The notes under the pieces are model-generated. The model was not told the DNA's origin. It saw only the letters and a program-made list of their open reading frames with translations, and did no database searches. A stretch of DNA of 64,000 nt, taken from an uncultured Verrucomicrobia subdivision 3 bacterium. Its GTDB lineage: Bacteria; Verrucomicrobiota; Verrucomicrobiia; Limisphaerales; UBA11358. Below, piece by piece: positions 7,213 to 45,975 of this stretch (its first letter is position 1; each line of letters begins with the position of its first letter). The stretch covers positions 3,115 to 67,114 of the forward strand of contig CAIMLG010000162.1 in NCBI GenBank assembly GCA_903842235.1, written 5' to 3'. The position numbers were made by a program, and so were the translations under genes.

Positions 7213-7219
7213 CTTTTCC

Positions 7220-17973: not shown

Positions 17974-17986
17974 AGGTGTGATGTGT

Positions 17987-18706
17987 TTAGGCAGCGACAA
18001 AGGGTTGATACCGTTTCCGGAAACGAACGAGCGACGCATCCACGATTTGTCGGACGCGTTCACGACTGAGATTGTACTTCTGGGACAGTTCTTCGAGATT
18101 CATACCCTGCCAAAACCGATCGACGATTAAGGAGCGTTCGCGGCACGACAGGGAGTTGATGAAGGCAGCTAGAATACTGGAGCGGTGTTCAGCATGAATG
18201 GCGTCACTAAATGCATCTGCGGGGTCCGCCAATACCTCAGCCAACGTCATTGGATTTTCCTCAGTGCCTATAGTTGCATCCAGGTGTTCAAACGCATGCT
18301 CCGTTTCATGAGGCTTGAGCGTGATCTCACACTCCACTCCTGCATCAAGGGCCTTCTCAACCAGCCGTCGTTTTTCCAAAACATACGCCGGAATATGGAT
18401 GATGCGATTTGTAGACATGTACCCATTCATCAGCCGCATGACCCACCATCCGGCGTATGATAAGAATTTTATGTTGGGCTGGTTATAGCGCCGCCAGCCT
18501 TCCAACAGTCCCCGCATCCCGGCGGCGTGCAGCTCCTTTAAAGAGCATGTTTTGTTGTAGGTGTGCGACGCGCACAAATTACGGGCCTTCCACCGTACGA
18601 ACGGCTCGTGCAACATCACGTCGTCCCAGCACTGCGGGCAGTCGCGACGTTGCTTTAACGAGCGTGCGGGTGTCGTTTCAATTGTTTCAGCGGTGCCAGT
18701 GTTCAT
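17987..18706 (-). CDS. sigma-70 family RNA polymerase sigma factor
   Basis: Region 2-like MRGLLEGWRRYNQPNIKFLSYAGWWVMRLMNGYMSTNRIIHIP. Region 4-like LSCRERSLIVDRFWQGMNLEELSQKYNLSRERVRQIVDASLVRFRK. Confidence 0.8.
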   Translation of the reverse strand: MNTGTAETIETTPARSLKQRRDCPQCWDDVMLHEPFVRWKARNLCASHTYNKTCSLKELHAAGMRGLLEGWRRYNQPNIKFLSYAGWWVMRLMNGYMSTNRIIHIPAYVLEKRRLVEKALDAGVECEITLKPHETEHAFEHLDATIGTEENPMTLAEVLADPADAFSDAIHAEHRSSILAAFINSLSCRERSLIVDRFWQGMNLEELSQKYNLSRERVRQIVDASLVRFRKRYQPFVAA

Positions 18707-20769: not shown

Positions 20770-21452
20770 ATGGATACCTCAATGTTGTAGTCTTCGTCAT
20801 CACTGACGATGGCTGGTTTGGAAACTTTGGCACGCTTGGGGGTCTTAGAAACTGCGGCCGCAACGGGAGCGGGGGAGAGGGGGACACCGCGAGTGGGGGG
20901 TGTGGGGGTGGAGACCGGAGAAAGGTCAATGCTGACCTCTTCCGCATCCATGCTCTGTCCTTCTTCGGCGACTGACGGCTTTGGGCGGGACAGGTAGTAC
21001 TCCTTGCGCAGTTTCCAGTCCGAGGCGAGGGATTTGCGCAGTTGCTCCATTGGGGGACTATAGTTGTTGTAGGTTTGGAGATACTCGGGACTAATTGGCC
21101 AGACCCAGATTCGCTCATTACCCAGCACGACCGAGAGTTTCGCCTGCGTGCAGTACCTCCGTTGCGGGAATACCTCAATCCAGCCAGTCTTGTCAGCAGT
21201 AAAGAACCTACCGAGGTATTGCCAAGTCGCACCGGCCTTGAATGGCTCCATCGGCAACTTGAAGCAGGCCACCCAACTATCCAGCATGTCGGCAGTCTGT
21301 GGACGCACACGCACCTGCTTTAAGGGGAGAACGCGGTCCAGTTTGGAGAGTACCGATTCAACCAGTTTGTCGATGCGTGGTGTCATCATACAGTATTTTA
21401 CTCGGTTGAGGGTGTCGAGGTTCTGAAGAATCGTTGCTGGTGGTGCCGACAC
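20766..21452 (-). CDS. hypothetical protein (element cargo)
   Basis: 228-aa ORF whose stop overlaps the primase-helicase start by 4 nt. It has a Pro/Ala/Ser-rich acidic C-terminus. No motif was recognised. Confidence 0.5.
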   Translation of the reverse strand: MSAPPATILQNLDTLNRVKYCMMTPRIDKLVESVLSKLDRVLPLKQVRVRPQTADMLDSWVACFKLPMEPFKAGATWQYLGRFFTADKTGWIEVFPQRRYCTQAKLSVVLGNERIWVWPISPEYLQTYNNYSPPMEQLRKSLASDWKLRKEYYLSRPKPSVAEEGQSMDAEEVSIDLSPVSTPTPPTRGVPLSPAPVAAAVSKTPKRAKVSKPAIVSDDEDYNIEVSI

Positions 21453-22700: not shown

Positions 22701-23246
22701 ATGAAAAAGCCTATGAAAAAAGACCGCGACCAAATCGAGTTCACGGAAGAAACCGCCCTGGCATTCTTTGCCCGCCATCTGGACGGACTGAAATGGAAAT
22801 ACAACCGCTTCGCAGACCGTCCGGTCCTGTTCTGCGGTTTCAACGGCGGCGATGTCCTTTGGGATTTCAACATGGTCACCCGCCAGAAAAGCGACGGCGA
22901 TTTCCTGCTGTCCGTCAGCTCCTTCATTCCCAACAAAGCTCGCCCCGAACGCCGCGCCGCCGTGGCCGAGCTTCTCACCCGCATCAATTGGGATCTGTCC
23001 TTGGGCTGTTTCGAGATGAATTACGCCGACGGCGAAATCCGCTTCCGCACCAGCATGATTCTGCCCGGTGCCGACATCACCGACGCCATCGTCGAGCACC
23101 TTGTTCGGTCAAATCTTTGCATCGTGGACGAGCGCATGCCCCAGATCATGGCCGTGCTGTATTCGGATGTCACCTCCGAGGACGCCCTGAAACCCAAGGT
23201 GGAAAAACCAGCGGCAGCGACGGAACCCCGCTTTGACTTTAATTGA
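22701..23246 (+). CDS. YbjN-like (type III secretion chaperone-like fold) protein
   Basis: The pattern FARHLDGLKWKYNRF...VLFCGFNGGD...AELLTRINWDLSLGCFEMNYADGEIRFRTS...IVEHLVRSN matches the YbjN/DUF1821 family layout. Confidence 0.6.
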   Translation: MKKPMKKDRDQIEFTEETALAFFARHLDGLKWKYNRFADRPVLFCGFNGGDVLWDFNMVTRQKSDGDFLLSVSSFIPNKARPERRAAVAELLTRINWDLSLGCFEMNYADGEIRFRTSMILPGADITDAIVEHLVRSNLCIVDERMPQIMAVLYSDVTSEDALKPKVEKPAAATEPRFDFN

Positions 23247-23584
23247 ATCGTCATCCGGCAATCATAAAACGCAAATGAAGCAGCTCACCACAATCCTCGT
23301 TGGCCTGGTGGTGTTGCTCGTTTTTCAAATATTAAAACGCCACACCCGCCAATAAAGAAATGCGCGGGACATGAAAACAGCCATTCCCATTGAAATTCAA
23401 CCTTGCCCCCACAAGTGGGCGACCTAACCTTTCTCTAACATTTTCCAATTCATGGGAATCGGTTCACATTCTTCTAGGCTGACACTTGCGGCTGGCAGGT
23501 GTCGCGCGGCAAACGGGGGCAGACAATGCCTCGCCGATTCTACCCCGATTATACTAGCAAACGTAAATGGCCCGCGTCTGACCT

Positions 23585-24811
23585 GTGAAAGTTAATCCCC
23601 AGACATTTTTCAACTTTTGCAGCCGGCACGTTTCATTGCTGCGGGGTCTGGCGGAACTATCCGGCGAATGTTCTGAGCTGGAGGTAATGCGCCTCATCAA
23701 GATTCATTCCGCGGATCAGGAAGAACTTCCCCAAACGGTTTGGCGCAATCTCCGCGAATTACAGATCCTTGTCCCCTCCGAACCTGGCGGCGACGACTAT
23801 TTGATGGCAGAACCGGTGGCCGGTTTGCTGGCCTACCTGCAAAACGAGGCGAATCCCGCCACGCCGGAATTGATTCGCGGCTATATCCAGTCCCTCGAAT
23901 CATTGGGGCAACGGCTATCCGCCGCTTTGACCGTGGAGGATGTTACGGTGGTTAGGCTGGCTTTCGACGAAATAACCGTGACACTTCGCCGCATCTACGC
24001 TGACTTGGAGCAAACCCATCACGCCGTATTGACGGAAGTTGCCGCCTACAAAACTCAGCGTTTTAACATCAGCGTCCGTGATAAATTTCGGCGCATAGTA
24101 TATTGGATGGACCGCTACGTTGAACCGATGATTGCGCTGGTTCGGGCCGACGGACCGATGCGGGCGGCGTTCGACGAGATCGAAAGGTTGCTACATCAAG
24201 CCCGGACGCAGGCATTGTTCAATGACCTTCCGGCGTTGGATCGTAATCTTCGCCATCTTCGCTTGGTTGGCACCCATGCGCTTCGCGTATTCATCCAATG
24301 CCGCAAGGAAATCCAGCCCCTCTATGAAACCCTCCGGCGGTCGAGCCTCATCGCCGAGGGCGCGGCCTTGGCCCTGCAAAAATTGCAGAACGAAGGCATC
24401 TCCGGTTGGGGCACGGTCCCATTGATTAACGTCTGTTCACTTCGGATCCAAAATGTCCCCGGCGACGGGGCCATTGGTCTCGCCCTGCGCCGGATTGTGG
24501 AGCATCCGCCCGAACCCCCGCCGATCTTGGACCTTTCCAAGGAAGATGTTGCCCCGGTCGCCCTGGATCGTCGCCGCTGGCTCGACGACTTGCCCGAACT
24601 CGTGCGGCCAGAACTGCCCGTGGACGATTTGCTTGGCTGGCTAGTCCGCCGTCATCCCGAAAAAGGACTGCCTGATGTCCTCGCCGGCCTGACGGAGATT
24701 GTTTTCCACCCGGATTTCGAGGCGCGCTTTCTGGATTCCAGTTCGCGCCTATACCAAACTGCCACCGGTCAGCTTTCCGCCTGCCCGGTTCATATAACCT
24801 CTCATGATTGA
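23585..24811 (+). CDS. jetA: Wadjet JetA / MksF-like kleisin-type subunit
   Basis: 408 aa, GTG start in the track, mostly helical. It is first in a 4-gene set with MksF-MksE-MksB-MksG order and sizes. The assignment is mainly by synteny with jetC and jetD. Confidence 0.55.
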   Translation: MKVNPQTFFNFCSRHVSLLRGLAELSGECSELEVMRLIKIHSADQEELPQTVWRNLRELQILVPSEPGGDDYLMAEPVAGLLAYLQNEANPATPELIRGYIQSLESLGQRLSAALTVEDVTVVRLAFDEITVTLRRIYADLEQTHHAVLTEVAAYKTQRFNISVRDKFRRIVYWMDRYVEPMIALVRADGPMRAAFDEIERLLHQARTQALFNDLPALDRNLRHLRLVGTHALRVFIQCRKEIQPLYETLRRSSLIAEGAALALQKLQNEGISGWGTVPLINVCSLRIQNVPGDGAIGLALRRIVEHPPEPPPILDLSKEDVAPVALDRRRWLDDLPELVRPELPVDDLLGWLVRRHPEKGLPDVLAGLTEIVFHPDFEARFLDSSSRLYQTATGQLSACPVHITSHD

Positions 24812-25361
24812 CCTCCCACAACTTGGCGATATTTTCGACCGGCTCAAACGGGGTGCCCACCTTGGCCCCGAAGACGAACCGTTTTATTCCAATCTTGTCG
24901 CGCGCTACGACGACTACGCCGCTTATTTTGCGCCGCTCGGTTTGCGCCTGATCCGCCATCCGCGCGAGTTTTTCTATTTCGATCCGGAAAACTCTGAAAG
25001 CGTCCCGGACACCCTGCCGCGCATCGCCATCTTTTCCTACATCATGGTGGACTTCGCGGCCAACCAGGGGCAGCCACTTGAGGAATACATTTTCAGTAAA
25101 AACTTCCTCATTAGTTCCCTGCCGCATTTTTCATTCGACCGCTACGCCGCGCTGTTGCGCCAGGTTGACATTCACGATGCGAAGGGACTCGAAAGCATCT
25201 TGCAACAGATGAAGCGAATTGGTTGGGTGCATATCCTCGGTCCGGACGAGTTTCGCTTTTTGCGTCCCTTCCATCGCGTATTCGCGCGGTGCATTGAGCT
25301 CGCCCAACCGCACGCGCCCAACGCCACTGCCGCCGGTGACAGTCCTAACCCCGCCCCCTGA
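24804..25361 (+). CDS. jetB: Wadjet JetB / MksE-like subunit
   Basis: 185 aa. Its start overlaps the jetA stop by 8 nt. Position and size match MksE/JetB. The assignment is by synteny. Confidence 0.55.
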   Translation: MIDLPQLGDIFDRLKRGAHLGPEDEPFYSNLVARYDDYAAYFAPLGLRLIRHPREFFYFDPENSESVPDTLPRIAIFSYIMVDFAANQGQPLEEYIFSKNFLISSLPHFSFDRYAALLRQVDIHDAKGLESILQQMKRIGWVHILGPDEFRFLRPFHRVFARCIELAQPHAPNATAAGDSPNPAP

Positions 25362-25364
25362 ACT

Positions 25365-28085
25365 ATGCCCACCGGACCACGAAAAATCATCCTCATCCAC
25401 TCCGGGCGTTACGAATATGCTGAGGTGGAAATTGCCGGCACGTTGCAAATCGTCGGGCCAAACAACACTGGCAAAACCACGCTCATCAACACGCTCCAGT
25501 TCCTCTATTTGAATGACATCCGGACAATGGATTTCGGTGGCTACAAATGGGAGCAGACCCGCGCCTTTTACTTCCCCAGTGAACACAGCTACATGCTGTT
25601 CGAGTGTTCCGGCGCCCAGGGGGATTGTGTCATCGGCTGGCGCGGACAAAGCAAGGCCAGTGGTGGTGAACCGGAACGGTTTTTCTTTTCCGGCCCCTAT
25701 TTGTCTGATGATTTTTACGATGCCAAGCATCAGGTTCGCCCCCCGCGCGAGGTCAGCGCCCGGCTGGCCTTGAAGAACTTCCGGGCCATAAAAAGCGCCG
25801 AGGAACATCGCACCTTGCTCCTGCCTCCGGATGGCGCTGGCTCCACTGGCCAGGGTATCGTCGCCTTGCGAGATGATGATAAATATCATCAGTTCCGTGA
25901 GACTCTGAAAAACTTGCTCACTCTCAGCGCGATTTCCCAGGAACAAATGCGCGACCGTGTGTTGATGCTCGCCAATATTCCCCCGGATAAGCTGGCTTTG
26001 GATGCGCGGACGCTTTTTGGCGAAGATTATGACCTGATTCGCGCCCGCCGTGAAAAATTGCTCCGCTTCAAGGAGCATCGGCCTCTGGTCGGCGGTCTGG
26101 TGGATAAATTTGCCAGCCGCGAACAGGCTCGCGGTGAACTGATCTATCGCTGGACTGACCTCCGGGCCAAGCGGCAGGCGTTTGATACTGAGCACCAAAA
26201 GGGTTTGGATCGGCTGAAATCAGAAAAAAAGAAACAGGGCGATTTGGCCCAATCGTTGTTGGTGGAAATTGATCGTCTGGGGAAAGAGTCACAAGACTAC
26301 GCCATTGAATTGGGGCGGGTGGATGAAAAGCTTAAGCAATTGGCCGCCGGCGACCGTGAATTTGCCCAGTTCACTCCGGAGTTGGAGCGGGCCGCCATTC
26401 AGGCACTCGAACAAAAAGCCCGCAACCTGGACGACCAGTTGCGCTCTGCGGAAAATGAATCGCGCGCTAAAGCCCTCGGTAAATGCGAATTTTTCACCGG
26501 TCAGGTTCGGGACAAGCAGCAAACGATTGACCGCTTTGACAAGGTCGTCATCACCGCCCTGCGCAAACATTTCAGCGACGACGAATTGAATCCGCTGTTT
26601 CGGCTGCTCAATCCCGAGCTGTTGGAATATCCCGTCGTCCAGGGTGCCATCGAGATACACCGTCAGGCCGAACTGGTGTCCACCCTGCGCGAGTTGGTCT
26701 CCCGGCTTAAAAACAATACGTATCAGGATGAAAACCTCACGATTGCTTTTCGTGGGGAAAAAGCCCCCGTGGCCGGCGTGGCCAATATTGAAGCCATTCG
26801 CGATCGGCTGGCGGAAGATCAGCAAAGCCTGGAGCGCTGGCAGAAAATTCTGTCGGCTATCGAACAGCGGGAAGCTCTGGAAAAGCAGCGAAAAGAAATT
26901 ACCGAGGAATTGGAAGGCTCGCCGGCTCGCGAGGGAAAAATCCGCCGGCTGTTTCGCTACGAGCAACATCTGTCCGCCAAGCAACACGAGAATCGCTTGC
27001 AGGCGGAGTTTAGAACCATTGACGAAACCATCAAGACGGCCAAGGCTCGCATCGGTAAATTAGATGGCGACCAGCGCAAAGCTGCCAATGCGGAACGCGA
27101 GGCCCAATCCGCCATTCTCAAAAAAGAGAATGAATATGGTGTGAGCATATCCGAATTTAACCGGTGCGTTTTCCCGGAATTTGCCGCCAGAAGCCGGACG
27201 CCGGATGAGGCCATCCCCGATGATTTTGGAGGTGCCGTCGCCTTGGTCCTTCGTCAGCAGGACGAAGAAGCCCAGTTGTCCAACGACATACGCAATGACA
27301 TGTCAGAAATTGAACGTTGGTTCAGTGATGATTTTCAAGGGGTGGATGAGAAAGAAACGGTCCGGTTGCTCCGCGAAGAATTGGAAGCCTTGACCGAAAA
27401 AGAAGCCGCTTTGGAACGCGATTGGAATGCCCATATTCATACTCTTCGCGCGACCTTCGACCAGATTTTAAAAAAATTGGGGGATGTCCTCAGCGCCCGG
27501 GATGGGTTGAATCGCCACTTTGCCAAAGTCCAGGTCTCTGACCTGAAAGCCGTCAAAATGGAGGTGCTGGAAGACAGCCAGACGGTGAACTGGATTCGTC
27601 GCCTCGCCGCGTATGAGCCGGGCGGCTTGTTTGAGAATGACAAGCAGCGGGAATCCGCCCTCGTTAATTTCCGGACCAAACTCCAGGGCAACCCCCAGGT
27701 GCGCTATGCCGACCTCTTCACGCTTGGCTTCACCGTCGTCGGTGCGGATGACCGTGCGCATACCTACCACGATTTTCGCCAGATTGAATCCCACGGCACA
27801 ACCGTGACCATCAAGGTCCTGTTCAATTTGCTGCTCCTGAAAAGCCAGTTGAAACGTGATGATTGTCAGGTGCCGTTCTTCCTCGACGAAATTCAGATTC
27901 TCGACCCGGCTAATCGCCACGCCATTCTCGACACCGCGCGCAAACTCGGTTTCATTGCCATCACCGCCGCGCCCGAGGCCGTCAGCGAAGTGGACGCGCT
28001 CTACTTCTTGCAGCCACGCAAGGGTTCGATCGTCCTGCGGCAGAAACACCGCGTCGGCGTCCAGCGCCAGCCCATCCCCGCATGA
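25365..28085 (+). CDS. jetC: Wadjet JetC / MksB-like SMC-family ATPase
   Basis: N-terminal Walker A GPNNTGKTTLINTLQFLY. A long central coiled-coil-like region rich in E/K/R/L/Q. C-terminal Walker B/D-loop VPFFLDEIQILD. Confidence 0.75.
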   Translation: MPTGPRKIILIHSGRYEYAEVEIAGTLQIVGPNNTGKTTLINTLQFLYLNDIRTMDFGGYKWEQTRAFYFPSEHSYMLFECSGAQGDCVIGWRGQSKASGGEPERFFFSGPYLSDDFYDAKHQVRPPREVSARLALKNFRAIKSAEEHRTLLLPPDGAGSTGQGIVALRDDDKYHQFRETLKNLLTLSAISQEQMRDRVLMLANIPPDKLALDARTLFGEDYDLIRARREKLLRFKEHRPLVGGLVDKFASREQARGELIYRWTDLRAKRQAFDTEHQKGLDRLKSEKKKQGDLAQSLLVEIDRLGKESQDYAIELGRVDEKLKQLAAGDREFAQFTPELERAAIQALEQKARNLDDQLRSAENESRAKALGKCEFFTGQVRDKQQTIDRFDKVVITALRKHFSDDELNPLFRLLNPELLEYPVVQGAIEIHRQAELVSTLRELVSRLKNNTYQDENLTIAFRGEKAPVAGVANIEAIRDRLAEDQQSLERWQKILSAIEQREALEKQRKEITEELEGSPAREGKIRRLFRYEQHLSAKQHENRLQAEFRTIDETIKTAKARIGKLDGDQRKAANAEREAQSAILKKENEYGVSISEFNRCVFPEFAARSRTPDEAIPDDFGGAVALVLRQQDEEAQLSNDIRNDMSEIERWFSDDFQGVDEKETVRLLREELEALTEKEAALERDWNAHIHTLRATFDQILKKLGDVLSARDGLNRHFAKVQVSDLKAVKMEVLEDSQTVNWIRRLAAYEPGGLFENDKQRESALVNFRTKLQGNPQVRYADLFTLGFTVVGADDRAHTYHDFRQIESHGTTVTIKVLFNLLLLKSQLKRDDCQVPFFLDEIQILDPANRHAILDTARKLGFIAITAAPEAVSEVDALYFLQPRKGSIVLRQKHRVGVQRQPIPA

Positions 28086-28951
28086 AGGATCCGGAAAACA
28101 AATTCATTCTGCTGACGCGCCTGTTGGAAATTGGCACGGTGGCGCGCTCTGCTTGTAGCCGCGAATTTATCGCCGCGCTCGCGCCGCTGTTGGATTCCGG
28201 CGTCGTCACGGAAGACAAGTCCGGGGCTGGCCGCCGTCTGGTGGTTCGGAATCCCACGGCGTTGCAGGCTTTTATCCGGCATCACTTCCCGGATGTTCTT
28301 GTGCCGGCGGGCACTTCCAGCCGCGTCGCGGGCGTCTCCCGCTTTCGGGATACCAAATCGGTTGCGAGCGACCTGCCGGAAATCGTCACCGTCCGCACGT
28401 GGCGGGAAGAAGCGTTGCGTTCCGATGGTAATTCCATCGGTGCGGCCACGGCCACCGCCGCGCATGGCGTTTTTTCCTTTTTGCTCGCCGATCCCGCACG
28501 CTTTACCTTGCACGGCCCTTGTGCCCTCGTGGAAAACCCGGCGGTTTTCACGCAGCTTGAACAGTTGCAGTTGCCGCCGAGTCTCGCTCTCTATGGCCAC
28601 GGACGATCCTCCAATCGGCTGCTCGATTGGCTTGCGACCCAGACTGCGCCGGATTTCCAGTTGCTCCATCTTCCGGATTATGACCCGGTGGGATTGGACG
28701 AGTTCAGCCGGCTGCGGGCGCGGCTTGGCCCGCGCGTGCAGCTCTATTTGCCGGAAAATCTGGCCGCATTATTTGCCCGCCACGGTAACGGCGACTTGCT
28801 GCAAAAATCCAGCACTCGGTCGCTCCTGGCAAAAATGCGCCAGAGCCAGATCGCCGAGGTTCGCACCGTGCTCGCCTTGATCGAAAGACACAATGCAGGT
28901 TTGGAACAGGAGGCGTTGCTCATCAACCAGACGCTAAAGGATTCGCAATGA
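28082..28951 (+). CDS. jetD: Wadjet JetD / MksG-like Toprim nuclease (short form)
   Basis: CALVENPAVFTQL (Toprim Glu, ENxxxF), LHLPDYDPVGLDEF (DxD) and the terminal GLEQEAL match the DUF2220-type JetD C-terminal domain. At 289 aa it lacks most of the usual N-terminal domain. Confidence 0.7.
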   Translation: MKDPENKFILLTRLLEIGTVARSACSREFIAALAPLLDSGVVTEDKSGAGRRLVVRNPTALQAFIRHHFPDVLVPAGTSSRVAGVSRFRDTKSVASDLPEIVTVRTWREEALRSDGNSIGAATATAAHGVFSFLLADPARFTLHGPCALVENPAVFTQLEQLQLPPSLALYGHGRSSNRLLDWLATQTAPDFQLLHLPDYDPVGLDEFSRLRARLGPRVQLYLPENLAALFARHGNGDLLQKSSTRSLLAKMRQSQIAEVRTVLALIERHNAGLEQEALLINQTLKDSQ

Positions 28952-30270
28952 TGGAAACGTTCTTAACCGCCTTTGATCCCTCCGATTTGCCCGGAACCAG
29001 TATTGATCCACTTGGTTTTGAAAGAGGCTACTTGTTTCTGGCGGATAAGATTCTTCCCGGTTTGACCAATGTTGCTTCCCGGCCGCGTTACTTCGCGCTT
29101 CTGTGCGCCGGCATCCAGTTGAGCGGCGATCAGGATTCTCGTTCGGAGCGCGAGCAGGTTGCCCATCGGCAGGAAACCATTCTGCGTTTGGAACGATTCT
29201 GGGCGCTCGCCAATGTGCTTGCGCGACCGGATAAAAGTGGCGGCGTGCGCGGCGTTACCTATGCGCAGGATTATGTTAAGGAATTGCTGCGGCGCGGGGA
29301 TAAACGCACCACTGCCGGCTACCGGTTGCTCTCTCGGCAGTCCCAGTATGGTGGCATCGGCATGTATGCCAATGTCGCCGATGGTATGCACTTTTTTAAC
29401 CGGGAAGATTTCATTCTCACCCCGGCTCTGGGCGAAGTCGCTGCGGAAGCGTTTTTGGCAGAAACCGGATTGCCCGGCTCAATTCGCCGGGCAGTCATTG
29501 ACGATACGGATGTCCCGTTGGCAACTCTGGCGGATTGGGGGGAACGCGCTCACGTCGAAGCCGAGGTGAAACCGCGCGAGGCGGCTTGTCTGGATGAAGC
29601 CTTGCACTACAACGATGTCCGGTCGCGCATGACCGGATTGCTCCGCGATCATCCGGCCAGGAGCGCCGAGGAAACAGAATTGGAACGGCTCGCCCGGACC
29701 TTGCGCACGCTGAAGCGCAACGGCCAGCATCAGGATCTGCAGGAAGGGATTGAATGCATCCTTGCGTTCGAATCCTGTTATCAGCATGTGCTGCTTTCGC
29801 TCGAACGGATTCTCTGGCTCTGCCGCCATCACGCGGCCGCCTCTATCACGCTTGCGGAGTTGGCCAACGATCCCGTGATGTTATTGGTGAAAACCAATCT
29901 GCCCACTCGCGTTCAACGCCTGCTCGATGTCCTCGATCACGGCACCATGCCCGGTTTTCGCGAACATCTTGACCGCCTTTCCGACGTTCGCCGGTTCCTG
30001 GAAACCGCCAGTGGTTCCGTGCAGGACAATTCCGCGTTCGTCGATGCCGTCATATCCCGTCATGCCGACGTCCAGCACGGGAAATTTGACCGGGGCCGCC
30101 GCAAGATGCCGTGGCTGGAGCGTATCAATTCACGACTGCAACTCACCATGACCCGGTCGGGTGGCATGAATCGGGAAGCCACCGACCCGTCACATATCAA
30201 TCCCCATCCGTATCGGCTTGGGGCCGCGGATGCTTTCATTTCGGCGTCTAAGAAGGGCATGGCATCATGA
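28948..30270 (+). CDS. hypothetical 440-aa protein, no recognisable domain
   Basis: Uninterrupted ORF with ATGA overlaps at both ends (with the jetD stop and the PLD start). Composition is like its neighbours. The N-terminus is FDPSDLPGTSIDPLGFERGYLFLADKILPGLTNVASRPRYFALLCAGI. No catalytic motif was identified by eye. Confidence 0.7.
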   Translation: MMETFLTAFDPSDLPGTSIDPLGFERGYLFLADKILPGLTNVASRPRYFALLCAGIQLSGDQDSRSEREQVAHRQETILRLERFWALANVLARPDKSGGVRGVTYAQDYVKELLRRGDKRTTAGYRLLSRQSQYGGIGMYANVADGMHFFNREDFILTPALGEVAAEAFLAETGLPGSIRRAVIDDTDVPLATLADWGERAHVEAEVKPREAACLDEALHYNDVRSRMTGLLRDHPARSAEETELERLARTLRTLKRNGQHQDLQEGIECILAFESCYQHVLLSLERILWLCRHHAAASITLAELANDPVMLLVKTNLPTRVQRLLDVLDHGTMPGFREHLDRLSDVRRFLETASGSVQDNSAFVDAVISRHADVQHGKFDRGRRKMPWLERINSRLQLTMTRSGGMNREATDPSHINPHPYRLGAADAFISASKKGMAS

Positions 30271-32381
30271 AGGATAATCAGGACATCAGCTCACGCAAGT
30301 TGATCGACCGCTTGGTTCCTGATCCGCATTGGGGTGCCATGCAAGGCTTGCTCGCCACCACCTTTGACCTCCGTCCGGAATTTCTGGAGACGGATTTTTT
30401 GCCCTCCGTTTTCGGTCTTGGCGCGTGGGATGACCAGAGTTGGGCCACCCGTATAGCGCTGGAGAAACGTCTTTTTGAACTCGACGCGGCGGTCATTCTC
30501 GCCGAAGCCCGACGCTACCGGGGGCGCCCGCGCTCGCTCCGCTTGGACGTGCGCCCCGCAGTCAGCCCGCGTGGTTCCGTGCTCCATGCCAAGGTCACTC
30601 TCCTTTTATTTGAGCGCGCCGTGCGTTTGATTGTGGGTAGCGCCAACCTCACGAAGCAGGGTTATCGCGAAAATCGTGAAGTCATCGCCGTCCTCACGGC
30701 CACTCAAAAATCCAAAAAAGAGGCCGCGCTCATCACTCAGGGATTGACGGGCATGGAGTCGGCTTTGTCCTCCTGGCTCACGCCGGAGGCTCGCCAGCTG
30801 ATTCGCCGTTCCATCGCGACTGTGCAGCCCTGGCTTACCGGCAATCCTGACCCCGATACAGCCTTTGTCTGGTCCAACGGACAAACCCGTTTGTGGCGTG
30901 AGTTTGTCGGGCGCTGGCCCGTCGGCGAGCCGGTCAAACGCATCTCCATCATCTCGCCTTTTTGGTCTCAGGACGCCAGCCTGACGCTGGCAACGTTTTT
31001 GACCGAGCTCAAAAAGGTCGGGCCGCTTGCCTCCGAAGCCGAAGTCCGTCTGCTGACTGATGCCTTCAAAAATCCCAATGGCGAACTCATCCCGGTTCTG
31101 CCGGCGGCTTACGCCACCCAAGATTGGCAGGCCCTTGGCGTCAAGGCCACCGCCCAGCCGGTGAACCCCGAGGTTCACCCGGAGGAATTGGGTGGCATGG
31201 AAGGTTTCACTGCCACGCGCGCACTCCATGCCAAAGTGGTGTTGGTCGAGGGCACTCGCACTGGTTTGGCCTACCTCGGTTCGGGTAACTTTACTGGACA
31301 TGGCTGGGGTTTTATTCCCGGCGCAGACAACGCGAACACGGAGGCCGGGGTGATACTGCGCCGATCCCTTCAAAGTTCTGACTTTGATCACGTGCTGCCT
31401 GATTTGGTCGGCCAGCCCATTTTGCTGTCGCACGCCAACATTCACAGTCTGCAAGCGCCGGAAATGGGGCCGGCCGATGAGCCTTGGCCTGAGTTTATCC
31501 GGCAGGTTCTCCTCGCGCCCGTTACGGCCGATGAAAACAAATTGGAACTTCGCATCGAAACGGCCGCTGATGGGGCCGGATTTCTTTGGTCTGCCTGCCT
31601 TCTGTCTAATGACGGCGTTCCGGGTGAAACCCTCGTTCCTCTCGAACAAACCCAGGACGCAACCAAGACCAGTTTCACCGTTTCGCTATCGGACTTGGTT
31701 CTCACCCGCTTGCTTACCGAGCAGGAAATTCAGATTTGCTGGCCGGATTGTCCGGCGGGTCGGCCGTTTCCTCTGAATGTGGAAGCCTCCGCTCGCGCCA
31801 GTCTTCCGATCTCGCCCGGCAAACAGACCATTGAGGAAATTCATCTGATTTCCTACTACCAAGGCCGGATTGCCTGGGAGCAACTCTTTCCTGACCCGGA
31901 GGCTGGCGGACCATCGGGCGACCAGACTGCCATCACCCCCGCGCCTGCCTCCGGCGTGGATAAGTCGCGTATCCAGTCCTATCAAATCCGTGAATTTGTC
32001 GAGGCGCTGGCCGGTTTGAATCAGGACCTGCGGTCAGCAACCCAATCCGAACCCGCCATGCGCTTGGCTTTGCTCGGCCCGGTCAGTCCCTTCGCGCTGG
32101 CTCAAACGATTATCGACGCCGTCGAAGCGGGACGCCGCACCCCCACCGCCGCTGGTTTCCAGTTGGTCGAAATTCTCGCCTGCCTCCAATCGGCGCGATC
32201 ACATTCGGTTCCCGAACGGTTGGCCGATGTCTGGCGGCAGCACCTTCAGCAGGTGCAGGGTAAAATTTCTCGCCTGTTGGAAAAACTGATCGCGGATCAT
32301 TCCGCTTTGTTCACGTCCAACCGTTCATTCGGGCGCTACCGGAAGGCCGTCTTCAACGGTGAAACGACCCTCCCATCATGA
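30267..32381 (+). CDS. phospholipase D-family (two HKD motifs) nuclease-like protein with ~300-aa C-terminal extension
   Basis: VLHAKVTLLLFERAVRLIVGSANLTKQG and ALHAKVVLVEGTRTGLAYLGSGNFTGHG are two HxK...GSxN motifs. Confidence 0.8.
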   Translation: MKDNQDISSRKLIDRLVPDPHWGAMQGLLATTFDLRPEFLETDFLPSVFGLGAWDDQSWATRIALEKRLFELDAAVILAEARRYRGRPRSLRLDVRPAVSPRGSVLHAKVTLLLFERAVRLIVGSANLTKQGYRENREVIAVLTATQKSKKEAALITQGLTGMESALSSWLTPEARQLIRRSIATVQPWLTGNPDPDTAFVWSNGQTRLWREFVGRWPVGEPVKRISIISPFWSQDASLTLATFLTELKKVGPLASEAEVRLLTDAFKNPNGELIPVLPAAYATQDWQALGVKATAQPVNPEVHPEELGGMEGFTATRALHAKVVLVEGTRTGLAYLGSGNFTGHGWGFIPGADNANTEAGVILRRSLQSSDFDHVLPDLVGQPILLSHANIHSLQAPEMGPADEPWPEFIRQVLLAPVTADENKLELRIETAADGAGFLWSACLLSNDGVPGETLVPLEQTQDATKTSFTVSLSDLVLTRLLTEQEIQICWPDCPAGRPFPLNVEASARASLPISPGKQTIEEIHLISYYQGRIAWEQLFPDPEAGGPSGDQTAITPAPASGVDKSRIQSYQIREFVEALAGLNQDLRSATQSEPAMRLALLGPVSPFALAQTIIDAVEAGRRTPTAAGFQLVEILACLQSARSHSVPERLADVWRQHLQQVQGKISRLLEKLIADHSALFTSNRSFGRYRKAVFNGETTLPS

Positions 32382-35300
32382 TTACTCCCTCGGCAGATTT
32401 TGATCTGGGTCGCGACAACCGCATGAAGGAACGTCCCGAAGACGCCCGCCGCCAGTGGCGCACGGTCGAGGTGATCTTGGAGCGGTTTTTCCATCCCCGG
32501 TCCGGCCAGCGGTTCGAAATTCAAATCCTGGCAGATGAAGTCGGCATGGGTAAAACCTTTGTCGCCCTGGGGTTGGCCTATTCCATCTTGGCCCACCTGA
32601 AACAATCTCGCACCGAGCCGGATCTGGATGGCTGCTATCAGCGAGTGTTGGTTCTTACCCCAAACAATCACGCCCTCTATCGCAAATGGGTTCGCGAGGT
32701 CTCCGAATTCAAGCGCCGCTGCGTTCCTCCTGAAAGTCAATCCGCGGATATTTACTTTGCCCCGCTGGCGGTGGATCGCTTGGATGATTTGGCGGTCGCC
32801 CTCCGTAAACCCGGCCGGCAACCCCAGGTCATCGTCGCGCGCATGGGGTTGTTCGGCGGTGATAAATTGCTCGATTATGAACTCAAGCGCCGCTTCACCC
32901 TCGGTGTCCTGTTCCGGTATTGGAGCAATCGGTTCAATAATGAAAACCGCCACCGTCTGCTCAAGGGCGCTCCAGAGGGCTGGCCGTCCCGTCCAGAAGG
33001 ACTCACGGATTTGACGGAGGACGAAGCCGGACGGCTGCCTTTCACCGAGGATGAATTCTTGGCCATCCTCAACCGGCTCACGGGCAAGGACACCCCCGAC
33101 CTGGAATCTCTTTTGGAGACTTGCCGCGAAGTCGCCGTTCCGTTTTTTCGTAACCGGGAGGATGCTTTCCGTAAAATTGGATACAAGCTCATCAATATTT
33201 ATCGCCTCGCCACGCTTCGCAGTATCCAGCGTGATTTCCCGTTGCTCATTGTGGACGAGGCTCACAACTGGAAAAACGGCCCGCAGTTGGGAGCCAACGG
33301 ATTTTTCGAGTTCAGGGATTTTATCGCCCCGCACGTTCGCCGCGCCCTGTTGCTCACGGCCACGCCGTTCCAACTGCGTCCGGAGGAAATGCTGGAAATC
33401 CTGAAGGTATCCGATGCCATGCAGCCATGTCCCACCCAGGCTGAATCTTCGGTCCGGGTCGGGCGTCTGGAAAAATTCCGCGAACAAATCATCCGGCCCG
33501 TGCTCGCCAACGCGGAAAGTCACAGCCGCCATTTTAGCCGCGCTTGGGTTCGGATTCCCCGCCGTGTCGCGGCCCCGGCCCTCGACGAGGGGTGGAACTC
33601 GCCCGGTTTGACCATCGCGCGGGAAAAGATTGTCACGCTCGCAAATCTCGATGGTGTCATCACCGATCATGGCGCGGATTTGGCTAAAATAATTTCCGGC
33701 GCGGTCGCGGGCATCGACCCGGACATTCGCCAGTTTCTCCGGGAAGCCCTTTACCTCTTCGCCTATAACGCCGACCTGTCCCGGGAGCTTGGTAAACTGG
33801 TGATCCGCCATCGTCGCCAGACGGACCACCGTCTTTTCCTCATCGGGGCTGAATATGGCCCGCCCTTGCCGGGCACGCTGGCTCGTCCGGATGGACACAT
33901 ACTTCATGCCGCCCCCGGCTTGGACATTCGCGGTGAGGCGGAACTTCCTCAATACCTGCTCATGCGTTGCGTGTCCGAGATGAAAGGCGGCAAAGGCCGG
34001 TCATCACTTGGCAGCGACCTCACGGGCTGCTACTCGACCCTGCACGAAAGCGCCGAGGGTCGTCGCGTTCAGCAATCTTTGGGTGACGCTCATGATGCCC
34101 GGCGTTACCTCGAAATCCTGTTTGATCTGGTGAATGAACGCCACGACCCGCGCCACCCGAAACTTTCCGCCGTGGTGGATGAATGTCTGCGCCATTGGCA
34201 GGCCGGTGAAAAAGTCCTGATTTTTTGTTTCCGCACCAACACTGCAGAGCGGCTCCATGAAATTCTCAGTGACCGCATTCGCGACGAATTGGCGGCGGGC
34301 AAAAAAAAGTGTCTCGGCGGCGAGGGCCAGCTCAAAACCTTGCGTGCCCGTCTCACCAGTCGCGACCGCGATCTGGTCGGCCTCGGTCTGGACCGCTTGC
34401 TTTGGTCGGTGCTGTGGACTCGCGACCAGAGTTGCCCATTCACCCCGGATCAATTCTTTTTAGCGGACGACGAACTCGCGGAACTCGCCCGGCTCTCCCT
34501 TAAATTTGGTATCGAGGTAAGCGGGGAACGGGTGGATCGCGTGTTCCTGTATCGCGCCACGGAACACATTCTCGCCCGCCGTTTTCTAAAGGTGGGCGTG
34601 CCGCATAAATCGCTGGAACAGTTGCTCACCAGTATGGCTGCCCTTGATTGGATTGCCAATGCCTACGGCCTGACGCATGAAGGCGAGGAAGACGAGGAAA
34701 GCGACGAAAGCATCTCCCTGCGGGGTTGCCATACCAATTATCCTCCCGGCGACATCGATCCGTCTGCCGCCAAAATCACGACGTTGGCAGACGAACTGCG
34801 GGCCACTCGGCTGCGGGCGCGCGGGCAAAAACAAATTCCAATTCTCGACTCCTACGCCTTGTCCCCCAGTCTTTGGCTCGGAGCTGACCCGCAACGTGTT
34901 TGGTTGGCGATGGGCACCGATGGCAACGCCGCCACGTTGCGCGGGATCCACCAGTTTCTCTGGCAATTGACGGTGCCGGATACGCACGCGTCAGACGACG
35001 CCAACGCAACCGAAGTGGACGGCGTGGATTTTTTCACCCGCGCGCTGGTGCTGCAGGCGCTCCGGCGGGCTGTGCTCCGGGATTCCGTTCTGCTCCGTCT
35101 TTTACCGCAAAACGGCGATCTCCACGAATCCGGCTGGGGCGAATTGCTCGCGGCCCGTTTCTTTGATCATCTCCCGAACCAGCACGAAAGCATGGCCCAG
35201 CGCATTGTCGTGTTTTTGGAAGATATGAAAGCTTCCAGCGGACACATCGCCAATCCCGATTCGGCCCGGGGCGCGCTCCATCAGGCCACTCTTCTGCGGG

Positions 35301-35833
35301 ACCAGCAGTTTGTCGCGCTGGTGAACGGCAGCACCAAGGCGGCCACCCGTGACCGCATCTTCAGCGGTTTCAATACCCCGCTGCTCCCGGAAGTGCTGGT
35401 TTGCACGTCGGTCGGTCAGGAGGGCATAGACCTGCACCGCCATTGCCGCCAGGTGGTGCATTACGATCTGGCGTGGAATCCGGCCGTGCTCGAACAGCGC
35501 ACCGGCCGCGCCGACCGGATTGGCAGCAAAACGTTTCGCGAACGCGATGCCGCCGCCGGCACCGCCAAAGTTTGCCTCGAAATTGGCGTGCCATTTCTCG
35601 CCGGCACCTACGATGAGCGCATGTATGAGGAACTTCGTTTGCGTGCCCAGACGTTTGAAGTGCTCACCGGCGGCGAATTTGCCGCCGACCACGCCGATGG
35701 CCAGGAAGAACCCATTTCGGCGTCGGGCGAAAAGCTTGGCAGTGCCGTTTTACCGCTCCCGCCGCCGATGATTGAGCATTTGCGCGTAAAACTTCAGGTG
35801 TGGGATGCACCGCTCGCGCCAGTTCCCAAATGA
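32378..35833 (+). CDS. SNF2-family helicase/translocase
   Basis: ILADEVGMGKTFVALGLA (motif I), LLIVDEAHNWKN (DEAH box), LLLTATPFQLRPEEMLEIL (motif III), TSVGQEGIDLHRHCRQVVHYDLAWNPAVLEQRTGRADRIGS (motifs V-VI). Confidence 0.85.
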   Translation: MITPSADFDLGRDNRMKERPEDARRQWRTVEVILERFFHPRSGQRFEIQILADEVGMGKTFVALGLAYSILAHLKQSRTEPDLDGCYQRVLVLTPNNHALYRKWVREVSEFKRRCVPPESQSADIYFAPLAVDRLDDLAVALRKPGRQPQVIVARMGLFGGDKLLDYELKRRFTLGVLFRYWSNRFNNENRHRLLKGAPEGWPSRPEGLTDLTEDEAGRLPFTEDEFLAILNRLTGKDTPDLESLLETCREVAVPFFRNREDAFRKIGYKLINIYRLATLRSIQRDFPLLIVDEAHNWKNGPQLGANGFFEFRDFIAPHVRRALLLTATPFQLRPEEMLEILKVSDAMQPCPTQAESSVRVGRLEKFREQIIRPVLANAESHSRHFSRAWVRIPRRVAAPALDEGWNSPGLTIAREKIVTLANLDGVITDHGADLAKIISGAVAGIDPDIRQFLREALYLFAYNADLSRELGKLVIRHRRQTDHRLFLIGAEYGPPLPGTLARPDGHILHAAPGLDIRGEAELPQYLLMRCVSEMKGGKGRSSLGSDLTGCYSTLHESAEGRRVQQSLGDAHDARRYLEILFDLVNERHDPRHPKLSAVVDECLRHWQAGEKVLIFCFRTNTAERLHEILSDRIRDELAAGKKKCLGGEGQLKTLRARLTSRDRDLVGLGLDRLLWSVLWTRDQSCPFTPDQFFLADDELAELARLSLKFGIEVSGERVDRVFLYRATEHILARRFLKVGVPHKSLEQLLTSMAALDWIANAYGLTHEGEEDEESDESISLRGCHTNYPPGDIDPSAAKITTLADELRATRLRARGQKQIPILDSYALSPSLWLGADPQRVWLAMGTDGNAATLRGIHQFLWQLTVPDTHASDDANATEVDGVDFFTRALVLQALRRAVLRDSVLLRLLPQNGDLHESGWGELLAARFFDHLPNQHESMAQRIVVFLEDMKASSGHIANPDSARGALHQATLLRDQQFVALVNGSTKAATRDRIFSGFNTPLLPEVLVCTSVGQEGIDLHRHCRQVVHYDLAWNPAVLEQRTGRADRIGSKTFRERDAAAGTAKVCLEIGVPFLAGTYDERMYEELRLRAQTFEVLTGGEFAADHADGQEEPISASGEKLGSAVLPLPPPMIEHLRVKLQVWDAPLAPVPK

Positions 35834-36014
35834 ATCGCCTGCCATCGCGTAAATACCGCCATCCTCCAAACCATTGAACAATCCACGCCCAGTGTCCGGA
35901 AGCATCCGAATATCTGGACCAGCACATGGTTTTCGACCCTGTAAAAGAAACCGTGTGCTTCACCGGCGACGACCGTCTCACAACGAGCCTCCAGACGCCA
36001 CCACGTTTGCCGCC

Positions 36015-38069
36015 TTACACCAACCCCATCGCCATCATGGCCGCACGTGTCGGGCTGTCATAAAACTGCCATTGAATGGCGGTAAGGATCGCATCCGGCA
36101 CTTCCGCGAGGTCGCGTTTGTTCTCGCTGGGAATCAAAATGCGTTTGGCTCCAGCCTCCACGGCCAACTGCATCCGTTCCGGCAACGACGTCACCCGCAG
36201 CAGCAACCCTTGAACGCTCATTTCCCCCAACACCACGGTTCGTTCCAGAACCGGCTTTTCCAGAATGGAGGACACTAGCGAGATGAAAAAGGCGACCGCC
36301 GTCTCCGCGCCTTCTTTGGCTTGGTTCAGGTTGATGGCCTGCAAATTGAAATCGTAGCTATCCATATCCTTGGTGATGCCTAGCGTCTTGAGATTGGCCC
36401 GCAGATAGGCATCAGCTGTTTTGATCGCTTCTTTCATCCCCTTCGAAAGATTTCCCAGCGGAATGATTCGACCTGAACCCGGATTGGCTTGCGCCTGGAG
36501 CCGGAATAGCGCGAGGCGATTGTCGCTCGCATCCGTGCCAATGGTGTAAATGCTGCCTGGCGCCAGTGCGCCTTCGGAAATGAGACTGCCGCCGCCGAGC
36601 TCGGGCACCCGGACGAAGGTCTCCTGGCCATTCTCCAAATCGAAGTAGGAAAAACTCGTGTTCCAATATTCCAATCCGCCCATCTTCTTGAGCTGTTCCT
36701 TTACACGGCGGCGCATTTCCATCGCGTATTCCACATATTCCCGGAGCTCTTCCTTCGTCACTTCGCCGTCGGGATGCAGCAGCTTGATCAGGCCGGAGAT
36801 GATTTTTCGCACGGCCTTTTGATCGCGGCCCCCGAGGTGCGAACCAAACTTGAAATACCGTTCCGCATAATCCACGTAACTCGACTTGCGCAGTTCGCGA
36901 AACACTTCCGCCAGATAATCCGTCACCAAGCCAAAATGATTCGTGTAGGCGTCATCGTGTGTTTTCTGAAATTCCCAGCCGGGGATGTAGGCATGAATCC
37001 GGTCGTAGAACGCCGTGTCCATTTCCTTGGGCATCGGGTAGAACAGATGCGACGTGCGCAGGATGGTCGAAATCTCGCCGTCAATATTCCCCACGAATAC
37101 CACCGAACCTTCGGCCTGGATGATGTCGCGCCCACGGCTGAACGCGCCGTCTTCCATGTAGCCCTTCATGATGTTGATTCCGCTCTTGTCGGAAAAATCA
37201 ATGCCGGCCGCTTCGTCAAAGGCCACCACATCCCAGAGGCAGACTAGTCCGCGCTGGCCCGAGGCCAGATTTACAAACATCTGCGCCGTGGTCGTCTGGC
37301 CGCCGGACACCAGATGGCAATACGGGCTCATTTGCTGATACACAAAGCTCTTGCCCGTGCCGCGCGGCCCCAATTCCACCGAGTTGAAATTTTTTTCCAC
37401 GAACGGCACCAGGCGCAGCAGGCAATGCAGCTTCCGGCGCTTGGTGTAATACGGATGATTTGGCTCGTAACCCATCGTGCGCATCAGGAAGTCCATCCAC
37501 TGGTCCCGCGTGAATCGCTTCCGGGCGGCCTTGTATCCATCCATGTTCCGGTTGGAGAGTTGGATGGGCCGGATCTTATCAATGAAAAATGGCCGGTTTT
37601 GTCCTTTGAAAATGAACGAGTCATCGTAACGCAGCGACACCTCGGCCCAGACGCCACCCATCAATAGCCGGTCATGCTCATGCACGGCCTTGTCGTCAAT
37701 GTTGATGTAGTCCAGGTTCAAATTCGACAGGCTGGCCCAATACTTGTCGTGCGTTTCCACCAGCTTCGCGGACACCTTGTCGATGACTTCGTAGGTCGTA
37801 TGCTGCTTGATGGCTGATTTCACCGATTCCCGCTCGTCCGGTTTTACGTATTTTGCCGACAACGTCTCGCGCACAAACTCCAGCCCCTCGTTGATGGCCG
37901 TCTCGTCGGTGGAGGCGCAATATTTTCCCAGCAAAAATTCAATCACAAAGGCCGGCACGCCAAACGACGACCGCATTCGCCGCAGCAGGTCTTTACGCAC
38001 CACCAGACCCGGGAAAGCTTCGATCGCCAGCCGGTCCAGTTCATCCAGTTCAATCGTGTTCTTTTGCAT
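36015..38069 (-). CDS. brxL: BREX Lon-like protease/ATPase BrxL
   Basis: N-terminus LDRLAIEAFPGLVVRKDLLRRMRSSFGVPAFVIEFLLGKYC, Walker A GPRGTGKSF, Lon-protease-like C-terminus VVLGEMSVQGLLLRV...AGAKRILIPSENKRDL. It is the last gene of the BREX operon. Confidence 0.9.
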   Translation of the reverse strand: MQKNTIELDELDRLAIEAFPGLVVRKDLLRRMRSSFGVPAFVIEFLLGKYCASTDETAINEGLEFVRETLSAKYVKPDERESVKSAIKQHTTYEVIDKVSAKLVETHDKYWASLSNLNLDYINIDDKAVHEHDRLLMGGVWAEVSLRYDDSFIFKGQNRPFFIDKIRPIQLSNRNMDGYKAARKRFTRDQWMDFLMRTMGYEPNHPYYTKRRKLHCLLRLVPFVEKNFNSVELGPRGTGKSFVYQQMSPYCHLVSGGQTTTAQMFVNLASGQRGLVCLWDVVAFDEAAGIDFSDKSGINIMKGYMEDGAFSRGRDIIQAEGSVVFVGNIDGEISTILRTSHLFYPMPKEMDTAFYDRIHAYIPGWEFQKTHDDAYTNHFGLVTDYLAEVFRELRKSSYVDYAERYFKFGSHLGGRDQKAVRKIISGLIKLLHPDGEVTKEELREYVEYAMEMRRRVKEQLKKMGGLEYWNTSFSYFDLENGQETFVRVPELGGGSLISEGALAPGSIYTIGTDASDNRLALFRLQAQANPGSGRIIPLGNLSKGMKEAIKTADAYLRANLKTLGITKDMDSYDFNLQAINLNQAKEGAETAVAFFISLVSSILEKPVLERTVVLGEMSVQGLLLRVTSLPERMQLAVEAGAKRILIPSENKRDLAEVPDAILTAIQWQFYDSPTRAAMMAMGLV

Positions 38070-38079
38070 AGGAAATAAA

Positions 38080-40650: not shown

Positions 40651-41093
40651 GGCGTGTTTTTCGGTTCGCTGGTCCCGGACGTTGGCAGCGGGGCCAAAGA
40701 CCCGCTGATGCCTCGCCACACGATCTCGCTCCGCAGGCTGTTGATCAATTGGGCGCGCAAGCTGGGGACCTTTGATTTCTTCTGCATCGGTATTCCTAGC
40801 ACTTTTCCAATCTCCAAAATGACTTGGCTGCCGAGGAAACCCACTTCCTTTTCCAGCGCGCTTTCGTTCGTCGCCAACGACTTGAGCCGTTCCAGATAGG
40901 CGCCATCCACGGCAATCACCGGTTTGGGAATTTTCGGCACTTTCGGCCAGGGACTCGTAAGGCTGACCCGCACGCGCGCGCCGCGTTGCGTCATCCGTTC
41001 CAACTCGGCGGGTGAATAAAGTTTCTCCAACCAACTGCGAACACTCTCGGGTGCCGGTTCTCCGGCTTTCAAAATAAATTCTTTAGTTGCCAT
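40647..41093 (-). CDS. hypothetical 148-aa protein coupled to the ParA-like ATPase and pglZ
   Basis: Its ATG lies inside the last codons of the ParA-like gene (11-nt overlap). Its stop overlaps the pglZ ATG (ATGA). No motif was recognised. Confidence 0.55.
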   Translation of the reverse strand: MATKEFILKAGEPAPESVRSWLEKLYSPAELERMTQRGARVRVSLTSPWPKVPKIPKPVIAVDGAYLERLKSLATNESALEKEVGFLGSQVILEIGKVLGIPMQKKSKVPSLRAQLINSLRSEIVWRGISGSLAPLPTSGTSEPKNTP

Positions 41094-42072: not shown

Positions 42073-42094
42073 ATTTTTAGCCCAATCGTCGTTT

Positions 42095-42919: not shown

Positions 42920-42922
42920 AGA

Positions 42923-45972: not shown

Positions 45973-45975
45973 GGT

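Follow-up and report, generated by a model that had tools for sequence, protein, structure and literature searches.

We analysed a window of 64,000 nucleotides (nt) from an uncultured Verrucomicrobia subdivision 3 bacterium (assembly GCA_903842235.1, contig CAIMLG010000162.1, positions 3,115 to 67,114) and within it a train of seven genes on the forward strand, at positions 23585-35833 of the window. Four genes resembling those of Wadjet/Mks systems (g1 to g4) are followed by three genes resembling those of the Azaca system (g5 to g7; Table 1). An earlier sequence-only reading of this DNA had described seven packed, co-directional genes, a description that was borne out by the list of open reading frames (ORFs) and by direct reading of the junctions. 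In order from g1 to g7, the junctions are -8, +3, -4, -4, -4 and -4 nt (negative values are overlaps), and the last four are ATGA overlaps, at 28082-28085 (g3/g4), 28948-28951 (g4/g5), 30267-30270 (g5/g6) and 32378-32381 (g6/g7). The GTG start of g1 is backed by conservation, as its relatives open with GTG/ATG-AAA-GT(T/A)-AAC-CC at the equal place.

Overlaps of 4 nt are usual in this genome (the nearby BREX operon has them at 44038/44041, 46854/46857 and 48953/48956, ORF coordinates), and the g5/g6 and g6/g7 overlaps are native to the trio g5-g7, as they are also found where this trio stands alone. Therefore, only the g4/g5 junction is special, and its overlap is kept in all three other seven-gene cassettes that were found. 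Scans of positions 22900-36300 for sigma-70 promoters (6 sites, compared with 4.3 in shuffled sequence) and for intrinsic terminators (18 sites, compared with 18.0) were uninformative on internal signals; the whole train would be transcribed from upstream of g1. A slight step in guanine plus cytosine content was observed, from 0.55-0.57 in g1-g3 to 0.58-0.60 in g4-g7, as would be expected if the two parts had separate histories.

The first four genes have the gene order of Wadjet, MksBEFG and EptABCD systems: kleisin, KITE, SMC ATPase and Toprim nuclease. The g1 protein matched the NCBIfam model of the 412-amino-acid (aa) Mks condensin subunit over residues 48-405 (1.7e-21, far under the cutoff), its close homologues carry the precomputed Pfam assignment PF28010 (the newer family MksB), and g1 is always the first gene of a conserved four-gene operon; comparison of its profile with the PDB found no solved structure. 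The g2 protein matched Pfam MksE (PF21980, 2.9e-27) and passed the cutoff of this family (96.5 versus 27). Like Wadjet and Mks KITE subunits it has an IFDR motif near its N-terminus, which reads MIDLPQLGDIFDRLK; the motif occupies residues 10-13, and its F, D and R were found in 39/39, 35/39 and 36/39 homologues respectively. The IFDR motif of JetB was reported to contact JetD (PMC10586767, a review that also covers the JetABCD mechanism). The g3 protein matched the NCBIfam model of the 926-aa Mks subunit (5.3e-41, under the cutoff) and DUF3584 (2.6e-7), and its homologues carry Pfam PF28007 (the newer family MksF). The SMC Walker A (GPNNTGKT) and Walker B (FFLDE) motifs of g3 are kept in 44-46 of 46 homologues; motif inspection gave no confident location for the ABC signature motif.

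The differences from known Wadjet and MksBEFG systems are nevertheless large, and all four proteins are very divergent. The NCBIfam Mks models scored 76, 77 and 140 bits, for cutoffs of 750, 400 and 1900, that is, of the order of a tenth of the cutoffs or less. The SMC protein has 906 aa, compared with 1097 positions in the JetC1 profile, and the nuclease has 289 aa, compared with 368-430, its N-terminal region being about 120 residues shorter. Used at their own thresholds, the curated Wadjet/Mks models fail to recognize the module, except Pfam MksE on g2, and PADLOC JetD matches g4 over the C-terminal domain only. Finally, the module of this window is joined to a second system.

The g4 protein matched Pfam DUF7281 (1.8e-8) and JetD_C (1.2e-6), in both cases over residues 149-283. 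In its AlphaFold2 model (pLDDT 84), a disordered linker joins a small winged helix (residues 1-70) to a Toprim domain. With Foldseek, this predicted fold matched best the MksG nuclease of Corynebacterium glutamicum (8b7f, 3.5e-5) and then Pseudomonas aeruginosa JetD (7til, 1.9e-4), topoisomerase VI-A coming next. The Toprim E...DxD residues E151, D199 and D201 were invariant in 57/57 homologues. By these fold matches, the domain matches and the conserved gene order, g1-g4 constitute a very divergent, compact module of the Wadjet/MksBEFG type, related to it by remote homology; domain, fold and motif evidence agree with the sequence-only reading, which had seen here the four Wadjet genes jetABCD, the Toprim domain of the last being retained.

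The g4 protein does not fit the usual JetD, which has about 370-430 aa and an elongated N-terminal CAP domain, whereas only the small winged helix precedes the Toprim domain and its linker in g4; the Toprim core starts from about residue 149, compared with about position 272 in the PADLOC JetD1 profile (409 positions). A search for g4 homologues gave 640 of them, and the lengths of those listed are mostly 281-296 aa. The neighbourhoods of g4 were studied in the best 80 of 236 metagenome hits. Among these metagenome loci, all 42 whose upstream sequence extends over 5.4 kb or more carry g1, g2 and g3, in this order, ahead of g4, and g3 adjoins g4 in 67/70 loci. The g4 protein is equally short where the trio is missing. 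Given the short length across the family and the constant company of g1-g3, the short JetD is therefore the family norm and marks a distinct compact Wadjet-like subtype rather than a decayed copy. A truncated JetD was considered and rejected, as the short length is normal across the family. Thus, the earlier description of a short JetD keeping its Toprim domain but little of the N-terminal domain was right on the size and on the intact Toprim domain, but the short form is not a local peculiarity. Two g4 homologues (L067, 3742-4491, and L115, 1598-2440) had no detectable g3 in the 1.6-3.7 kb upstream; these may be orphan or rearranged Toprim genes.

The last three genes form a separate trio, as had been noted, and both their domain matches and their fixed order bear this out. 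The g6 protein matched PLDc_2 (8.7e-11), ZacB (2.8e-21), PDC-M27B (7.5e-13) and DrmC (up to 1.6e-8), and the residues H107/K109 and H321/K323 of its two HxK...GSxN motifs were invariant in 37/37 homologues. The g7 protein matched Helicase_C (7.2e-18) and SNF2-rel_dom (1.9e-6); its best PADLOC match was PDC-M27C (1.2e-39), followed by ZacC (8.7e-32) and DrmD (9e-23), and it also matched the NCBIfam DrmD model (1.9e-30, far under the cutoff). Its GMGKT (residues 56-60) and DEAH (293-296) motifs were invariant in 31/31 homologues. The g5 protein had no direct match in Pfam or PADLOC, and its AlphaFold2 model (pLDDT 78) had no PDB fold match by Foldseek; Pfam DUF6361 was found neither in g5 nor in 22 relatives. 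The g5 protein has at least 439 homologues, the profile of its family finds 619 clusters, and g5 is always the first gene of the conserved trio. Two of 13 members of the family matched PDC-M27A weakly (0.0033), and all 10 distant full-length members examined, which the g5 profile had retrieved at 1e-29 to 1e-57, matched PADLOC ZacA (2e-8 to 2e-3), for the most part within the first 70 positions of that model. It is only transitively, through distant family members, that g5 is linked to ZacA. The order g5-g6-g7 is fixed in about 40 loci from Planctomycetota, Verrucomicrobiota, Acidobacteriota, Myxococcota, Desulfobacterota and others.

Azaca, characterized from Bacillus massilioanorexius, consists of ZacA (DUF6361), ZacB (PLD) and ZacC (SF2 helicase), all three of which are needed for the cleavage of T4 DNA in vitro (bioRxiv 10.1101/2025.07.10.664194). 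The trio of the window is built likewise, the gene of an accessory protein being followed by those of a PLD nuclease and an SF2 helicase, with intact HxK motifs in g6 and intact helicase Walker A/B motifs in g7. It differs from Azaca in that g5 itself matches neither ZacA nor DUF6361, in that the ZacB match covers only part of g6, and in its hosts, which belong to the Planctomycetes-Verrucomicrobia-Chlamydiae (PVC) group, Acidobacteriota and Myxococcota for the trio and to Firmicutes for Azaca. Likeness to PDC-M27, a computational three-gene candidate of PADLOC, lies in the g6 match to PDC-M27B and the best match of g7; these matches are partial, however, and g5 itself has none. To our knowledge, PDC-M27 has no tested activity. 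The matches of g6 and g7 to Zac and PDC-M27 models, together with a g5 family that reaches ZacA, therefore identify g5-g7 as a probable divergent system of the Azaca (ZacABC)/PDC-M27 type, and the trio left anonymous in the sequence-only reading can be placed in this group.

The DrmC and DrmD matches of g6 and g7 could also mean that these genes are remnants of a DISARM system (DrmC PLD protein and DrmD SNF2 protein) and not part of an Azaca-like trio. However, these matches are weaker than those with ZacB, ZacC and PDC-M27C and far under the NCBIfam cutoffs, no DrmA (a helicase with DUF1998), DrmB or methylase, which make up the DISARM core, was found in 23585-35833 or beside the trio in annotated neighbourhoods, and g6 and g7 form with g5, whose family links to ZacA, the fixed unit described above. 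This origin is extremely improbable, and a DISARM remnant was rejected on the weaker matches and the absence of DrmA or DrmB.

The linkage between the two modules was surveyed from both sides. An alignment scan of species-representative genomes with g5 gave 44 loci from several phyla, and look-ups of close relatives (88%, 83% and 75% identity) added seven trio loci. Of these, 41 had 900 nt or more of upstream sequence, and 35 had 5.4 kb or more. Mks genes were found beside the trio in 0/41 loci with at least 900 nt upstream, by tblastn and with profile hidden Markov models of g1-g4 (E<=1), for which a positive control worked. The trio relatives at 88%, 83% and 75% identity all stand alone. Conversely, 55 loci have 1.2 kb or more of sequence after g4, and in only one of them, L045, does the trio lie beside the Mks genes (1/55). 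These linkage frequencies are rough, but with values of 0/41 and 1/55 each module is therefore self-contained, and it is autonomous in nearly all sampled loci. A single obligate seven-component system was rejected, as the modules are autonomous elsewhere. The sequence-only reading had asked whether short-JetD Wadjet variants are enriched for the trio; a single locus in 55 had it.

Elsewhere, the gene after g4 codes for a Fic protein or for an SNF2 helicase, or else is an unknown ORF, and it sometimes overlaps the g4 stop. An SNF2 helicase lies directly downstream of the Mks-DUF7281 module in L056 (about 6076-9114), and a Pfam-tested Fic protein in L092 (10993-12237); the gene at 11188-12423 of L094 encodes a close homologue of this Fic protein, as judged by likeness to L092 only. 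Unknown ORFs at 8212-9321 of L090 (369 aa) and at 8406-9047 of L100 (213 aa) have starts that overlap the stop of g4. Additional genes seem to dock often at the 3' end of g4. In unfused close relatives of the cassette, neither trio remnants nor common DNA were found downstream of g4.

The seven-gene order recurs in three other sequence-distinct cassettes with different flanks, L045, L125-128 and L129 (Table 1), and the nearest relatives of the cassette come from Planctomycetota and Limisphaerales metagenome-assembled genomes. When the four cassettes are aligned at the DNA level, similarity runs from about 100 nt before g1 as far as the g7 stop and is absent beyond. As homology is confined to the seven-gene block, the seven genes travel as a block. 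A YbjN-family gene (22701-23246, forward strand), 338 nt upstream of g1, lies outside the region common to the four cassettes. In L125, g7 is followed on the same strand (16082-19103) by the gene of a second SNF2 helicase, 957 aa long, and by that of a DUF2130 protein. The sequence-only reading had held that a lack of co-occurrence in other genomes, together with an independently used internal promoter, would count against a joined unit; the block was found in at least three other cassettes.

The adjacency of the two modules might be an accident of a defence island without meaning, the overlap being a trivial by-product. The window is indeed a dense defence island, with a BREX operon, a PDC-M38-like pair and a DruE homologue; ATGA overlaps are usual in the genome; the genes downstream of g4 vary widely, some of them overlapping its stop; and the ATGA of the g5 start belongs to g5 itself, its context ATGAT(T/G)GA being also found where g5 stands alone. 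Nevertheless, the fused arrangement is present in at least four sequence-distinct cassettes with unrelated flanks and with homology limited to the block. This recurrence therefore identifies an inherited, transferred unit, not a one-off event, and makes a meaningless adjacency very unlikely.

Table 1. Genes and features of the seven-gene cassette (window coordinates) and the other cassettes with the same gene order
Feature	Position	Strand	Remarks
Cassette 5' edge, presumed promoter/leader	23487-23584	+	From four-way DNA alignment; promoter role putative
g1, kleisin subunit (JetA / Mks kleisin-like)	23585-24811	+	408 aa, GTG start
g2, KITE subunit (MksE/JetB-like)	24804-25361	+	185 aa, N-terminal IFDR motif
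g3, compact SMC-like ABC ATPase (JetC-like)	25365-28085	+	906 aa
g4, short Toprim nuclease (DUF7281; MksG/JetD-like)	28082-28951	+	289 aa, winged-helix N-domain and Toprim
Approximate recombination breakpoint, window cassette versus L045	28500-28700		From sliding-window nucleotide identity
g5, ZacA-like all-alpha protein	28948-30270	+	440 aa
g6, PLD-family nuclease (ZacB-like)	30267-32381	+	704 aa, two HxK...GSxN motifs
g7, SNF2-type SF2 helicase/translocase (ZacC-like)	32378-35833	+	1151 aa
Seven-gene cassette L045			On 330-kb contig
Seven-gene cassette L125-128			Formyl_trans_N upstream; second SNF2 and DUF2130 downstream
Seven-gene cassette L129			TraG/TrbC genes upstream; IS66 downstream

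In neighbour-joining trees, all fused copies fell into one shallow clade of the trio and one clade of g4, and unfused loci were interleaved in these clades, lacking Mks genes on the trio side (L002, L133, L135) and lacking the trio on the Mks side (L046, L048, L050-L052). Linkage within the fused clade was roughly 50%. One fusion followed by separations or exchanges is the simplest reading of these trees. The nucleotide identity between the window cassette and L045 is about 73% over g1-g3, rises within g4 and, beyond about 28.6 kb and as far as the stop of g7, stands at 89-96%. Therefore, this step between the two halves indicates that the modules recombine, near the seam. Between the window and stand-alone trios, homology stops exactly at the g5 ATG.

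Our preferred interpretation, to which we give a probability of about 0.7, is that two autonomous defence systems were stacked into one mobile operon. By analogy with JetABCD and MksBEFG, the kleisin-KITE-SMC motor of the first module would load on DNA and extrude loops; the g1-g3 motor would sense small circular DNA such as plasmids, and g4 would cut it. By analogy with the ZacABC proteins of Bacillus, the ZacA-like protein, the PLD nuclease and the SNF2 ATPase of the second module would assemble into a complex that uses ATP to degrade phage DNA. Most likely, the spacer was lost in a single fusion, within one lineage, so that the g4 stop came to overlap the g5 start. As one cassette, the seven genes would then have passed from genome to genome and from one defence island to another, its halves being still swapped by recombination, with one module sometimes absent in close relatives. 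Co-expression from a promoter upstream of g1 would protect the host against both plasmids and phages by means of a single transferable unit, in which neither module would need the other.

Alternatively, the modules may be functionally coupled. In a two-stage process, the Mks/Toprim module would cut circular DNA and the PLD/SNF2 proteins would degrade the linear product, or the SMC motor would recruit or license the trio, and the fusion would have been selected for synergy. Several observations can be cited for this: four sequence-distinct cassettes show translational coupling of g4 and g5, and the seven genes move together; SNF2-type helicases are found near Mks-DUF7281 modules elsewhere, directly downstream in L056, as the second SNF2 gene of L125 and in convergent orientation in L071; and with about 148 residues before the Toprim core, compared with about 270 in the JetD1 profile, g4 may leave room for a partner. 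Against this, nearly every locus has one module without the other, the fused clades contain the relatives cited above that lack one or the other module, and the halves recombine independently. Furthermore, g4 is as short where there is no trio, so that its shortness is no adaptation to the trio, and helicases are frequent in defence islands anyway. Functional coupling is therefore an unlikely explanation, and obligate coupling is not supported. The sequence-only reading had left the choice between functional coupling and very tight stacking; the linkage counts and the discordant histories of the two modules favour stacking. Quite unlikely, finally, is a physical or sequential cooperation of the two modules in this lineage, for instance as an SMC-guided degradosome, in which the Mks motor would sense the invader, its minimal Toprim protein would cut it, and a translocating PLD nuclease would then take it over and destroy it; if it existed, its target range would be broader than that of either system, and the g4/g5 coupling would set the stoichiometry of the subunits.

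Several points weigh against the stacking of two autonomous systems. First, the fusion was kept over about 25-30% nucleotide divergence and several transfers, a persistence of linkage that also argues for coupling and that could reflect selection for joint function, not mere linkage. Second, the functions of both modules are assigned by remote homology only: the PADLOC JetA and JetB models gave no match in the first module and JetC1 a marginal one (0.0037), and the g1, g3 and g4 profiles found no solved JetABCD or MukBEF chain by sequence in the PDB. Third, the sampling behind the linkage frequencies is biased (44 loci from species-representative genomes and a subset of metagenome hits), and the neighbour-joining trees are without support values.

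The cassette lies in what looks like a genomic island, whose left end would follow a tRNA-Arg(TCT) gene (15213-15289, forward strand). Housekeeping genes precede this tRNA gene, among them those for an NDK-domain protein (5986-7158) and for Mfd/TRCF (7220-10750). The 449-aa ORF that follows it (15361-16710), a putative island integrase, had no match in Pfam, the PDB or PADLOC, and a repeat of the tRNA-Arg 3' end, as expected of an attachment site, was not found within the window. Helix-turn-helix and sigma-70-like genes and a gene for a DUF3854/AAA_25 protein occupy 17245-21452.

Downstream of g7, a type-1-like BREX operon lies on the reverse strand (36015-54023). Its PglX appears split into an N-terminal part (46854-48956) and a C-terminal part (44038-45972), with a Fic/DOC-family gene between them (45976-46857) that overlaps the N-terminal part by 4 nt and is separated from the C-terminal part by 3 nt. 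Between PglX and PglZ, on the same strand, are the genes of an AAA_15/AbiLi-like ATPase (42923-44041) and of a DUF3226 protein (42095-42919). They make up a PDC-M38-like pair, seemingly one more system embedded in this island, and are followed by a ParA/AAA_31-like ATPase (41083-42072). At 54694-63948, still on the reverse strand, a 1962-aa helicase matches Druantia DruE (8.7e-184), preceded upstream by a 1119-aa ORF that had no match in Pfam or PADLOC; this locus may be a Druantia-type system running off the window.

Stacked or embedded systems are well known in defence islands, for instance accessory systems inside BREX operons. As in these cases, independent systems share one locus here, and probably one transcript. 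The cassette differs from them in that the pair itself is a conserved, transferable unit of seven genes with a start/stop overlap at the seam. A search of the literature on DUF7281/PF23947, on PDC-M27 and on Wadjet co-occurrence or synergy found nothing on this arrangement, nor a paper that describes DUF7281 or PDC-M27. Both components are of known kinds, and the novelty lies in assigning them to subtypes and in a fusion that is conserved and transferable.

These results point to a large uncharacterized Wadjet-like subtype, in which compact MksBEF-type genes are associated with a DUF7281 Toprim protein of about 285 aa and which the PADLOC Jet models miss. It is thereby likely that DUF7281 proteins serve SMC defence systems as their nuclease. 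Similarly, the Azaca/PDC-M27 group would be extended to a widespread and strongly conserved trio in PVC bacteria, Acidobacteriota and Myxococcota. If the effects of the two systems only add up, which is most likely, their association is an ordinary defence-island phenomenon. The cassette nonetheless provides a natural case of two systems in one transferable operon, for which unfused relatives of both halves can serve as controls, and is therefore convenient for asking whether stacked defences add up or synergize.

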